From Octopus sinensis (lineage: Eukaryota), in the NCBI RefSeq assembly GCF_006345805.1, contig NW_021823617.1, positions 1 through 23,228 on the forward strand: DNA of 23,228 nucleotides, in the 5' to 3' direction. The position numbers and the translations under genes are program-made. This document shows positions 2,411 to 22,460 of the stretch, piece by piece. The notes under the pieces were generated by a model. That model saw only the letters and a list, made by a program, of their open reading frames with translations, was not told the DNA's origin and made no database searches. Positions within the stretch are counted from its first letter, which is position 1, and each line of letters starts with the position of its first letter.

Positions 2411-2894
2411 ATATATATTTGTGTTTGTTTATACACACACATATATATATATATATGTGTGTATGCATATGTATGTATATAAGTATGTATATATATATAT
2501 ATACTATATATTATATATATATATATATATATACGCATTATTTATTTACATACATAACATACATACATACATACATACATACATACATACATACATACAT
2601 ACATACATACATACATCATACATACTCAGTCTCAATTTTGTTCTAATTTTATCTTTTCTTTTCCAATATCCCTAAGTTATTATACTAACGCACTGGTCCA
2701 TCATTTAGTCTGGGTACATACAACTTAGTAGACTCCATCTAAGAATTTTATTCCGAAATATTATCAGGCTGTGGACGACTAAATTACAACAGGTATATAG
2801 CCCATAGTTTGTATTATAGTGCATTGTTGTACCATTCAAAACTTTTTATTCTTTACAGACAATACACAATGCTTCAAGCGAACTACAATACTCT

Positions 2895-2937
<43 letters not shown>

Positions 2938-3361
2938 TATAAGGAGAGTATTGTAGTTCGCTTGAAGCATTGTGTATTGTCTGTAAAGAATAAAAAGTTT
3001 TGAATGGTACAAACAATGCACTATAATACAAAACTATGAGCTAGATACCTGTGTAATTTAGTCGTCCACAGCCTGATAATATTTCGGAATAAAATTCTTA
3101 GATGGAGTCTACTAAGTTGTATGTACCCAGACTAAATGATGGACCAGTGCGTTAGTATAAAAACTTAGGGATATTGGAAAAGAAAAGATAAAATTAGAAC
3201 AAAATTGAGACTGAGTATGTATGTATGTATGTGGTATGTATGTATGTAAATAAATAAATGCGTATATATATACATATATATATATATATATACATACTTA
3301 TGCATACACACATATATATATATATATATATGTGTGTGTATAAACAAACACAAATATATAT
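2411..3361. repeat. Long near-perfect palindrome (arms ~2411-2898 and 2941-3361) around a 42-bp (TA)n spacer; PLE-like content
   Basis: ...gcttcaagcgaactacaatactctcctt [TA]n aaggagagtattgtagttcgcttgaagc...; complementarity continues through unique and microsatellite blocks with a few substitutions and indels. Confidence 0.95.
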
Positions 3362-16453: not shown

Positions 16454-17074
16454 GTCTGTCTATCTACCACTTGCTTAACCAATCTATAGCTGCCATTAAG
16501 TAATTTTATGATTGAATTACTACATAATTATTTACATGGCTGTTTCATTCTTGGACATAGTGCGAGGCTTTTCCCATGCAAAGGAAGGCTAGACTGAATA
16601 AATTCTAGCGCTTCGTGGATATTTATTTATTTAAGGTTGTGCATATGCATATATGCATAAATACATCGAAATTAATGAATATAAAATTATATGTTACTGA
16701 ATTCGAAAATCAAGTAGAAATCCGTTGTACTAAAAGTATTAAAGGGCAAAACAGATTTACTATTCGACACATATTCTAACATTTCCCTGAGACTGACACT
16801 GGATGACTTCAATGGAAATCTGGATAGTATAAAAGGAGATGCCTCATTTTGTTTTAAAAGTGACAGCTTACGTGTGCAGTTACCTGAAATATTTTGTGTT
16901 AGTAGATAGGGGATAGTCATGATGCTTATCTCTTTGATATTAAAAGAGCAGGAGAGTAGAACCAGACCAACGGTTGGTGGATGTTTGTAAAAAAATCTGT
17001 GCTTTTAGACTATGTATGTATGTATGTATGTATGTATGTATGTATGTATGTATGTATGTATGTATGTATGTATG

Positions 17075-17312
17075 TCATTGGTCAGTTTTATTTCAAGATT
17101 TCTTGCCAATAGAGAAAAAACCGGTTTCTAACCTAGATTCAAGGCACCTTCTTTGGAATTTCAACATCAACAACAGGGTATTTTTGATGTAGGTATTTAT
17201 ATCATTATTCAGTTTATTTCAAGATTTCGTGCCAATAGAGAAAGAACCGGTTTCTAACCTAGATCTAAGGCTCCTTCATTGGAATTTCAAAATCAACAAC
17301 AGGGTATTTTTG
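17075..17312 (-). mobile_element. Family E short element, tandem dimer (17075-17186, 17202-17312) embedded in (TATG)n
   Basis: Two ~112-bp units at a 127-bp period; on the minus strand the distal unit ends GAAATAAAACTGACCAATGA followed by (CATA)n. Confidence 0.85.
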
Positions 17313-17394
17313 TATGTATGTATGTATATATGTATGTATGTATGTATGTAGTGTATGTGCAGATTAGTATATTTTGTTCTATGTTTTATTATAT

Positions 17395-17714: not shown

Positions 17715-18610
<896 letters not shown>

Positions 18611-19414: not shown

Positions 19415-19519
19415 TACATATATATACTATACATACATACATACATATAGATATGTATATATATATATATTATATATTATATATATATATATATAATATA
19501 TATATTATATAGTATGTAT

Positions 19520-19652
19520 AGATTCATATGAATAAGGTACTTAAGTTGAGGCACCAGATATCCATACAATTTCAAAATAAGGTGGTTCAATCAAAATAAG
19601 CAACAAGAATATCCAGAGGTAATGCAGGATATTATTGTTGCTTATTTTGATT
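19520..19652 (-). mobile_element. Penelope-like fragment with a terminal fold-back (26-bp inverted repeat)
   Basis: Minus strand from 19627 reads CTGCATTACCTCTGGATATTCTTGTTGCTTATTTTGA, matching 21675-21711. Arms 19589-19614 and 19627-19652 match at 25/26 with a 12-nt loop. Confidence 0.7.
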
Positions 19653-19684
<32 letters not shown>

Positions 19685-19714
19685 TGTATGTATGTATGTA
19701 TGTATGTATGTATG

Positions 19715-19770
<56 letters not shown>

Positions 19771-20244
19771 ATCTATCTATCTATATATATATACACAGAC
19801 ATATATAAACGTGTATGTGTGTGTATATATATATATATTTGTACATATAAAATGTATATATTATTACACTTGTACGTTCTTACCTGTATACGTTTTACGT
19901 AACAAAGAAGGGAAGTAACTAGAATAGAGGGAAATGCAGGGGAAGAAAAATGAGGTCGTAGTCAGAGAAGATAAAGTGTGGTAGAGATAGTAAGAGTTAC
20001 GTAAAGAGGTTGGAATTGAAAATAGTGGATATTTAAAGATGAAACTGGAAGGGGAGAAGGAATTATGATGACTGCTAAGTTAGCAAGGACATTTTATCTT
20101 ATTTTCTTATTTTTCCCCTTTCTTTCTCAAGGCATTTGTTATAATTATAAGATAAGATAACAAGAACTGAAAAATGGCATTATTTTCTTTATGTATGTAT
20201 GTATGGCTAAATAGGTACGTATAACTACATTGCTACACACATAA

Positions 20245-20263
20245 TATTTATGATATATATATC

Positions 20264-20297
<34 letters not shown>

Positions 20298-20439
20298 ATA
20301 TAATATATATATATTATATATATATATATATATTATATATATATATACATATATATATACATATATATATATACATATATACATATATATATATACATAT
20401 ATACACACATCATATATATATATACATATATACATATAT

Positions 20440-20504
<65 letters not shown>
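20245..20504. repeat. (TA)n/(CA)n microsatellite
   Basis: Directly visible. Confidence 0.95.
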
Positions 20505-20505
<1 letters not shown>

Positions 20506-20813
20506 CACTGTGATCACTGTGATCGACCAGGCTATCAGATGTTGCTACACATCGCCGGTCACAATGCGCTTCGCATTGTTTTAGCCTTCAAATGACGCCA
20601 ACCCGCTGGCTAAGCGAGCAGGCCAACAAAAGAAAGAGTGAGAGAAAGTTGTGGCGAAAGAGTACAGCAGTGATCGCCACCACCCCCTGCCAGAACTTCG
20701 TGGAGCTTTATGTGTTTTCGCTCAATAAACACTCACAACGCCCGGTCTGGGAATCGAAACCGAGATCCTACAACCGCGAGTCCGCTGCCCTAACCACTAG
20801 GCCATTGCGCCTC

Positions 20814-20816
<3 letters not shown>
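20505..20816 (-). mobile_element. tRNA-derived SINE family C, full length
   Basis: Head GTGGAGGCGCAATGGCCTAGTGGTTAGGGCAGCGGACT.., A box TGGCCTAGTGG (20794-20804), B box GGTTTCGATTCC (20750-20761), tail of tandem TCACAGTGA; sits between (CA)n/(TA)n repeats. Confidence 0.88.
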
Positions 20817-20876
<60 letters not shown>

Positions 20877-21050
20877 TTGCTTGTCCTTACATTTACTCCT
20901 CTACCTGGTCAAGTTCAAATCTCTTGAACACTACGAAGTGTATTCTATACAGAGAATACCTGTCTCTAATCTATATGTATGTATATATACTTATGTATGT
21001 ATATACATGTTGTAAATTTTTGTGTATATATATATATATATATATATATA

Positions 21051-21429
21051 CTAGCAGTATCGCCCGGCGTTGCTCAGGTTTGTAAGGGAAATACTACTAT
21101 AAAGCATTTTTAAAGAGAGTATAGCCAAAAAATGGAAAAAAAATGATGGTAAATTTTTTTTGAGATTAAAAAGAGGTGGAGTTGCGTCCCTAGAACAGTT
21201 TGTGGTTTGTGTTTCTGCTTTCGCTCGACCCATGTCGAATTTATCGATTTTTTTTCAGAACTGGGAACTTTTCAAAATTTTCGCTGCGTTAGTTTTGAAT
21301 TATGACATTGGGCTATGTGTGTGTCAAGTTCATCAATCAGAATCGGTTGAAAGCCGTGGTCAGGGTGAGGGTACAAGCAAACAGACACACAGAAACACGC
21401 ACAGACAAACTGTGCCGTTTACATAGAGA
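21051..21429 (-). mobile_element. Non-autonomous Helitron-type element (379 bp)
   Basis: Minus strand a|TCTCTATG...CCTGAGCAACGCCGGGCGATACTGCTAG|t: 5' TC, subterminal hairpin, 3' CTAG, inserted in A^T with no TSD. Confidence 0.85.
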
Positions 21430-21584
21430 TATATATATATATATGTATATATGGATGAGTTCAGTAAAAATTTAGATTAAGACGAATATGGTACTTGTTC
21501 TTTGTCTATATCCTAATCCTCTTGGAGATTTTAGGTAAAATCATACTAATGTGTCCTTCTAATTTAATTAAATTCTATGTCTTT

Positions 21585-21680
21585 GTGCAGCTGAAGATTT
21601 CTCTACATTTTAAATTGATGTAATGAATCACTGCATTGTTCAATTAAATGGAGTAGTCGCATGAAACGATCGTACTACAT
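21585..21680 (+). ncRNA. Type I hammerhead ribozyme motif (PLE type) with a long stem II
   Basis: Stem I GUGCAG/CUACAU (5 of 6 pairs), CUGAAGA (21591-21597), ~65-nt hairpin-forming stem II region, GAAA (21663-21666), palindromic CGAUCG, GUA triplet; predicted cleavage after A21674. Base of stem II is mismatched. Confidence 0.65.
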
Positions 21681-22460
21681 TACCTCTGGATATCCTTGTT
21701 CGTTATTTTGATATATTTATATATGGATGTATATAATATATAACCTTATAAGTATATTTATAAAACCATATTAAGAGCACAAGGCTATTCTTACAAGCCA
21801 AGCCACATGCTGAAAGAAGGCGCCAAATGGCGCAAAACTGCCTCATGTAAACACGCACTGAAAGCGAGGAAATAAACGAAAAGATTCAGTGTTGTAAGAC
21901 TAGCTTTTGTTCTTAATATAGATATATATACGTATAAAATTATATATTCTATTAATTTTTTACCTTAATTGGTTATTACATGCTGACTATGTGATAAAAT
22001 CAAATATAGATTGTATCCTTAATTTTAATTTATATATATATATATAAACTTGATTTCGAAACGTACGTCCGTGGATAACTAAAAAAATGTATGATAGATT
22101 GCAGTCAATTCATTCTCTCTTACCTGTTTGTGCCTTCCAAATGCTGCTTTTACTGAGATCTCCCTTTTTAGTAGAAGAAATAGCTATAACCCTTTGACTG
22201 CTATTTCTAAATTCGGTATGTGGTAAGGCAACTCGTTGCTAAACCCTTATTGCTTAGTATTACTTAAATTTTCCTCGAATGAGGCTTTTACATGCCGAAG
22301 ACTACTTGGTTAATTGATATTTTTCCAAATTAATTAATTTCACCCTTCATTATTACGGATATATATATATATATATAGATATATATATATATATAAATTG
22401 ACAAAATGAGGTAAAAAATCCAAGGCTACAAGTAGTTTTCAGAACATATATAAAGAAAAG

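Follow-up and report, generated by a model that had tools for sequence, protein, structure and literature searches.

Truncated copies of a Penelope-like retrotransposon in the genome of Octopus sinensis start in excess at the predicted cut of the hammerhead ribozyme that the element carries near its 3' end, and this excess is probably the result of a minority of RNA templates having been cut by the ribozyme, with reverse transcriptase running off at the cut end. On balance the copies also favor a broader reading, by which truncated Penelope copies would keep a base-exact germ-line footprint of hammerhead cleavage, roughly 8–20 per cent of insertions would stem from cut RNA, and joints between inverted arms would unite two cDNAs that ran off the same cut end. 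The copy ends amount to a moderately strong genomic hint of ribozyme cleavage in vivo.

Copies in the window and the element behind them

The window, meaning the whole stretch of DNA that was analyzed, comprises positions 1..23,228 of contig NW_021823617.1 (assembly GCF_006345805.1, forward strand). Positions in the element are numbered from the predicted cut, with +1 as the first base on its 3' side and minus numbers upstream. A 21-mer of the repeat has four matches in the window against none in 100 shuffles, and alignment to natural copies resolves the layout into two head-to-head insertions and one fragment:

21585..21680, plus strand: decayed copy of the type I hammerhead in the 3' terminal repeat of the element, with its cut predicted at 21674/21675
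21585-21590, plus strand: stem I 5' strand of the window ribozyme copy
21591-21597, plus strand: CUGAAGA core of the window ribozyme copy
21663-21666, plus strand: GAAA of the window ribozyme copy
21667-21672, plus strand: palindromic CGAUCG of the window ribozyme copy, helix III
21673-21674, plus strand: UA of the window ribozyme copy, before the predicted cut
21675-21680, plus strand: stem I 3' strand of the window ribozyme copy
21496..21712, plus strand: insertion 1, long arm, 3' end of a 5'-truncated element (about -178 to +38), passing the cut and stopping at the inner 3' end
21455..21496, minus strand: insertion 1, short inverted arm, end of the tail, joined head-to-head with the long arm
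19519..19627, minus strand: insertion 2, arm beginning at the cut, at +1 or, as one base belongs to both arms, at +2, and extending through the tail
19627..19653, plus strand: insertion 2, inverted partner arm (+14 to +39), followed by microsatellite
18419..18456, minus strand: third fragment, spanning +5 to about +39 and surrounded by (TA)n

Every part of the type I hammerhead that the initial annotation had placed at 21585-21680, with its cut after 21674, could be located. The C.A mismatch noted there in stem I is not the sole defect of this decayed copy, in which a stem II pair is also broken and three bases are duplicated; forcing it into the hammerhead fold gives about -2.4 kcal/mol against -21.1 kcal/mol for the minimum-energy fold. 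The Rfam hammerhead models that had been proposed as a check did not recognize the motif: the scan of 21450-21720 returned no hammerhead match and three unrelated weak matches, and a wider scan returned no hammerhead among the 150 of 270 matches listed.

The minus-strand copy at 19627 does carry the first six bases on the 3' side of the cut and restores a C-G pair where the window ribozyme copy has C.A, both as annotated; whether it begins exactly at the cut is ambiguous by one base, between +1 and +2. It had further been described as an independent copy ending at 19589, but it continues to 19519 through the element's tail and stands head-to-head with the plus-strand arm 19627-19653, one base being common to both. 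There is about an even chance that this arm derives from cut RNA. The third fragment begins at +5 on the minus strand, about four nucleotides short of the site as had been said, although it spans 18419-18456 rather than 18422-18456.

Repeat finders run on the window gave output dominated by microsatellites. Long near-perfect inverted repeats or hairpins lie at 2816-3024 and 864-987, inverted repeats of 172 bases and 99 per cent identity at 2617-2788 and 3052-3223, and a tandem repeat of period 126 and 2.2 copies at 17050-17329; the inverted repeats and hairpins centered on (TA)n may be other families that inserted in foldback or head-to-head form.

The window pieces come from a Penelope-like retrotransposon that encodes protein, of which they are 5'-truncated ends. 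It has over 3000 copies: in the 2.72-Gb genome a 24-mer at +15..+38 matches exactly at 3046 places, and a tail 23-mer at 1702. Upstream of the repeat an AT-rich stretch of ∼2.8 kb is followed by a GIY-YIG-like domain, CxCx5C, an Asn-rich linker, reverse transcriptase (RT) and a DKT motif, and the order of the element is DKT region, RT, Asn-rich linker, CxCx5C, GIY-YIG, long 3' UTR, hammerhead and tail. One near-complete element (L234, G000:C13:18680500-18690499) has all parts in order, including the hammerhead, the tail and a 5' inverted terminal repeat; its ORF is interrupted by stops and frameshifts, and every coding copy inspected is broken. Among 2197 candidate proteins, five longer ones matched the RT piece (E 6e-36 to 2e-20), and an intact 711-aa protein with Hydra-type motifs, P0002, matched the RT piece at 6e-36, the N-terminal piece at 1e-23 and the endonuclease (EN) piece of another copy, L181, at 2e-14. 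Pfam returned GIY-YIG at E=0.0024, which is weaker than its cut-off, and for the RT and N-terminal pieces it gave no RT family and nothing meaningful; a protein atlas queried with element pieces pointed to RT-like eukaryotic clusters, a lead only.

The translations of L233 and L234 have the change of DKG to DKT, and inspection by eye of several copies' translations revealed a CxCx5C linker, no CCHH, and CxxC and CxH around a conserved E and N. At the N terminus, which L233 is the sole copy to reach, RW is followed by I instead of forming RWK, and the RT motifs can be aligned by eye with the alignment in the supplement of PMC8557442. Judged by its motifs, the element appears to be a member of the Hydra clade of C-terminal EN+ Penelope-like elements; in itself it is unremarkable, a new family within a clade already described.

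Several features of individual copies may be recorded here. The ∼2.8-kb 3' UTR is made of diverged internal repeats 600–900 bases apart with 65–70 per cent identity (L155, L181). An Asn-rich linker of trinucleotide repeats lies within the ORF between RT and endonuclease (L188, L208, L214), and in L181 another retroelement has inserted in it; Asn-rich inserts have been described in rotifer Penelope elements (PMC3846280). In the tail of L234 (2265-2320) an ATG stands ∼60 bases past the cut, in a frame that loosely resembles the start of related proteins and has a stop. Further related subfamilies, L338 and L357 among them, have the 3' motif in common, differ around the cut and possess head-to-head joints of their own.

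Copies have two preferred 3' ends, at about +39 and at +120 to +135, and a TA-type microsatellite adjoins 41 of the 43 that end at the inner one; the tail is present in 51 of 94 copies. The initial annotation had suggested a non-autonomous retrozyme-like family, moving as a ribozyme-processed, possibly circular, unit. The type I hammerhead with its palindromic loop 3 and the predominance of short, non-coding copies fit such a family, and Penelope terminal repeats have been put forward as the origin of animal retrozymes (bioRxiv 10.64898/2026.07.22.740005). Yet the repeat is colinear with, and forms the 3' end of, an element encoding RT and a GIY-YIG endonuclease, and the 5' ends of copies are scattered over >400 bases with no cut-to-cut unit. 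A tandem retrozyme is excluded by the arrangement of 94 copies: within 950 bases, an inverted arm accompanies 38 of them and a same-strand neighbor only one. The retrozyme proposal is thereby largely refuted, and we consider it very improbable.

The hammerhead motif across copies

Conservation was assessed in 166 copies with a complete motif, collected with a search pattern that tolerated one change per core block. Columns of the CUGANGA, GAAA and UH core are 0.91–1.0 conserved, with position 7 at only 0.77; it alone among the core positions varies freely. Stem I exists in four subfamily types that differ by two-sided changes, its pairs 1–5 being retained in 86–93 per cent of copies, while pairs 2–4 of stem II are retained in 87–89 per cent and helix III has 2 bp. 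These stem changes are inherited per subfamily and are not independent events. A conserved motif with compensatory changes between subfamilies bears out the earlier attribution to the Penelope type of hammerhead.

The G10.1-C11.1 pair at the base of stem II is mostly absent, this position being U.U in 134, G.U in 15 and G-C in 2 of the 166 copies. An intact copy is predicted to form the hammerhead at -17.5 kcal/mol against -22.6 kcal/mol for its minimum-energy fold, in which a helix carries on across the cut. Both features, the missing pair and the hammerhead not being the minimum-energy fold even in an intact copy, count against a derivation of copy ends from cut RNA. The lack of a paired base in stem II had moreover been named beforehand as a finding that would speak against the ribozyme reading, and formally it is what the consensus has; it is no refutation, given that a U.U hammerhead has been reported to cleave (PMC7229834). 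The axolotl HHR_Amex2 has both U.U and a helix III of 2 bp; its monomer cleaves to 22 per cent in an hour and its dimer to a greater extent (PMC7229834). Two sea-cucumber members of the Hydra clade also show U at both positions of the stem II base (PMC8557442, supplement File S2). Because the active HHR_Amex2 combines U.U with a 2-bp helix III, self-cleavage of the octopus motif, as judged from its sequence, is plausible despite the U.U. The palindrome of helix III could permit pairing of two RNAs (predicted at -12 kcal/mol), and cleavage would probably need either a dimer or the element's protein. Contigs assembled from four sequencing runs presumed to be of RNA span the motif's stretch and are neutral on cleavage.

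Copy ends and joints around the predicted cut

Two sets of copies were collected independently of how they end near the cut. Set A comprises 94 distinct copies from the first 95 of the 3046 24-mer places, and Set C, anchored in the tail, 98 distinct copies from the first 100 of the 1702 tail places. Since automatic calling of breakpoints could not be relied on where copies had internal indels or palindromes, the ends were curated by hand, unblinded, from printed sequence contexts. Three copies with an apparent end at +1 (L040, L217, L244) were not counted, as a deletion to an upstream repeat creates that end. The deletion recurs with one endpoint at +1 and the other upstream in stem II, where the seven bases found at +1 occur a second time; the ribozyme core is lost with it, and it represents either an ordinary deletion or re-priming after run-off.

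Set C lost 14 of 98 arms over +99..+40, 16 of 84 over +39..+15, 9 of 68 over +14..+3, 8 of 59 at +2/+1 and 6 of 51 over -1..-30, which corresponds to 0.24, 0.76, 1.1, 6.8 and 0.39 per cent of arms ending per base, respectively. The excess at +1/+2 has P=4e-5 against the 1.1 per cent rate, the higher of the neighboring ones. Losses in Set A were 13 of 94 over +14..+3, 4 of 81 at +2/+1 and 7 of 77 over -1..-30, and here the +1/+2 ends are not significant against the downstream rate (P=0.10) and reach P=0.003 against the upstream rate. Combining the two sets, with the 11 copies common to both counted once, gives 129 arms, of which 11 end at +1/+2 where 1.0–2.8 are expected (P=2e-4), and seven of these 11 ends have neither a palindrome nor CTG microhomology (P=0.02 to 6e-5). 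Mere nearness to the priming site was considered as a source of the peak and rejected, since tail-primed arms lose 0.24 per cent per base over their first 60 bases. A short partner arm may nonetheless set joints within +39..+3.

Most arms nonetheless pass the site: 77 of the 81 at risk in Set A and 51 of the 59 in Set C, or about 91 per cent overall. With ∼90 per cent of copies passing the cut, cleavage is not the normal route. The proposal of a fossil record of processed RNA accordingly survives at the level of the family, in the over-representation of 5' ends at the cut, and not for the single window copy, which is no record alone when ∼9/10 of arms are uncut.

Larger numbers of ends came from enriched sets, whose search patterns required loss of the core AAA and so selected arms broken within +9..-8. 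Set B0 took all 47 exact matches and kept 36 (the 11 dropped being nine internal deletions and two duplicates). Set B1 kept 40 arms from the 53 of 269 one-mismatch matches listed; those discarded were copies with internal deletions or with duplications, mutated copies of full length, a single chance match and an arm ending at -9. For subfamily B, 100 of 135 matches were listed, 30 with context and 70 as 35-base strings alone, and 63 were kept, the other 37 being of subfamily A type, chance matches, deletions, duplicates or, in three cases, ends at -9.

Among the 36 arms of Set B0, six end at +1 (P=0.018) and eight at +1/+2 (P=0.054). The 40 arms of Set B1, from the matches listed, include 12 at +2, nine at +7 and four at +1, the last of these not significant for exact +1 ends (P=0.21). 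Subfamily B, also among the matches listed, has 10 arms at +2, nine at +1, nine at -2 and eight at +7; it has no TGCA palindrome, and 19 of its 63 truncated arms end at +1/+2 against 7.4 expected (P=8e-5). In one of its loci (G000:C2:37923766), seen in a 35-base listing, both arms end at +1 with no shared template base. Pooled over the 139 truncated arms from the matches listed, the counts are 24 at +2, 20 at +7, 19 at +1, 12 at +5, 11 at -2, nine at -3, eight at -1 and at most six at any other position.

The second peak, at +7, counts against a pure cleavage reading, as cleavage alone does not predict it. It might be taken as the foot of stem I approached from the 3' side, and would then speak for an account without any cleavage in which reverse transcriptase stalls at a folded or protein-bound hammerhead and leaves cDNAs ending nearby. 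The higher rate of ends over +14..+3, with its drop upstream, agrees with stalling, and the anole protein is required for ribozyme activity and so may occupy the site (PMC11167929). A stalled enzyme, however, should stop before stem I, at +7, and not at +1 after the stem has been unwound; the +7 position is itself a TA, matching both the (TA)n target and the bases preceding the cut; and an intact copy is predicted to fold into a helix that is not interrupted at the cut. We consider stalling an unlikely source of the excess.

The joints between inverted arms provide a second line of evidence. At the 41 loci where both arms reach +8, 23 are joined at the TGCA palindrome (+2..+5) and three in its one-mismatch form, four (and one unclear case) fit two cDNAs both ending at +1, four are joined at GTAC (-3..+1) and six otherwise. 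Joints at the palindrome just inside the cut therefore occur at 26 loci, compared with three at the stronger 8-base palindrome just outside it, although the predicted duplex is -7.8 kcal/mol for the inner and -9.7 kcal/mol for the outer. This perfect outer palindrome (-9..-2) is used at three of 20 loci, the remainder being mostly unrelated, and a reverse-pattern control gave seven. An upstream TGCA control has a joint at one of eight loci, and a nearby imperfect upstream palindrome at five of eight. Further downstream, the 8-base palindrome GGATATCC (+14..+21) carries joints at 19 of the first 50 of 141 loci, a count that is not directly comparable because its arms are common to related subfamilies. 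Palindromes steer the joints, yet their use drops sharply across the cut.

Palindromes at Penelope head-to-head joints have been described before and were interpreted as self-priming (PMC3846280), and it might be expected that they suffice here too. The sequence at -3..+9 is an imperfect palindrome matching in 10 of 12 bases, which would draw joints in the absence of any cut and counts against a cut-RNA origin; cDNAs would then stop at random and arms would be joined wherever they can pair, the imperfect palindrome and short shared words pulling joints to +1/+2. The joints do track palindromes at GGATATCC, at TGCA and at the imperfect upstream site. Against microhomology as the sole cause, only three loci have their joint in the strongest palindrome, which lies immediately upstream of the cut, subfamily B peaks at +1/+2 with no TGCA palindrome, and seven of the 11 unbiased +1/+2 ends do not have such microhomology. 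An uncut 12-base heteroduplex would also be expected to give the one-mismatch form often, and the observed ratio is 3 to 23. Random stops joined by microhomology accordingly seem a rather doubtful explanation.

The head-to-head arms lie in (TA)n, and the +1/+2 peak with its fall just upstream supports a contribution of cut RNA. By this mechanism both ends of the target break would prime reverse transcription at two internal start sites (twin priming), the cDNA on a cut template would run off at +1, and the two cDNAs would be joined blunt, via 1–5 bases common to both, or at a nearby palindrome to which they had been trimmed. Cut RNA would then be the source of about 8 per cent of site-reaching arms, or of up to 13–20 per cent when the ends at +3 to +14 are counted as trimmed ones.

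Relation to known elements and retrozymes

Hammerheads in Penelope repeats, opposite-strand pairs, palindromic joints and Asn-rich inserts are already known (PMC4209133, PMC3846280). A processing role for the hammerhead was proposed by Cervera and De la Pena (2014; PMC4209133) without in vivo evidence, and its function is called unclear by Craig et al. (2021; PMC8557442). A literature search, conducted largely outside subscription papers, found no report of genomic 5' ends accumulating at a Penelope hammerhead cut; Fig. S2 of PMC11167929 plots genomic ends. An excess counted in each of two subfamilies would speak for in vivo cutting by Penelope hammerheads. If so, cutting would be a minor route that shortens copies, probably a side route and not a required processing step, and copy ends would provide a sequence-only assay of ribozyme activity in vivo that is usable on any genome. 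Related subfamilies with head-to-head joints of their own could act as further replicates.

The Hydra clade (e.g. Hydra-1_Obim, Hydra-1_Ajap) resembles the octopus element in DKT, the CxCx5C linker, a GIY-YIG domain without CCHH and with CxxC and CxH, the (TA)n target, a hammerhead near the 3' end and, in two members, a U.U-type stem II base (PMC8557442). The octopus element is about 5.5–6 kb, whereas the clade is mostly under about 3 kb, and is longer because of its ∼2.8-kb 3' UTR with diverged internal repeats and its Asn-rich linker. Its stem II region spans 57–64 bases, and its hammerhead sequence is unlike that of Hydra-1_Obim (PMC8557442).

The minimal hammerheads of metazoan Penelope elements are likewise of type I, with a tiny palindromic helix III that suits dimer cleavage and a place in the terminal repeat, and opposite-strand pairs 100–700 bp apart are known there; unlike them, the octopus motif lacks the G10.1-C11.1 pair and has a far longer stem II region (PMC4209133). 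Non-LTR retrozymes share the type I hammerhead and, in HHR_Amex2, the 2-bp helix III and the U.U at the base of helix II, but they are non-coding tandem repeats of 150–450 bp that give rise to circular RNAs, whereas the octopus family is coding, dispersed and arranged head-to-head (PMC7229834).

The closest mechanistic parallel is the Poseidon element of Anolis carolinensis, PAc, in which two internal starts of reverse transcription explain the tail, both target strands are extended and the main template is uncut RNA (PMC11167929). In this sole biochemical study the Penelope hammerhead was dispensable, ribozyme mutants inserting normally in vitro, and no RNA-seq reads ended at the site; both results count against a derivation of copy ends from cut RNA. 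PAc belongs to another clade, and in contrast to its RNA-seq, with no ends at the cut, the genomic 5' ends of the octopus element are in excess there (PMC11167929).
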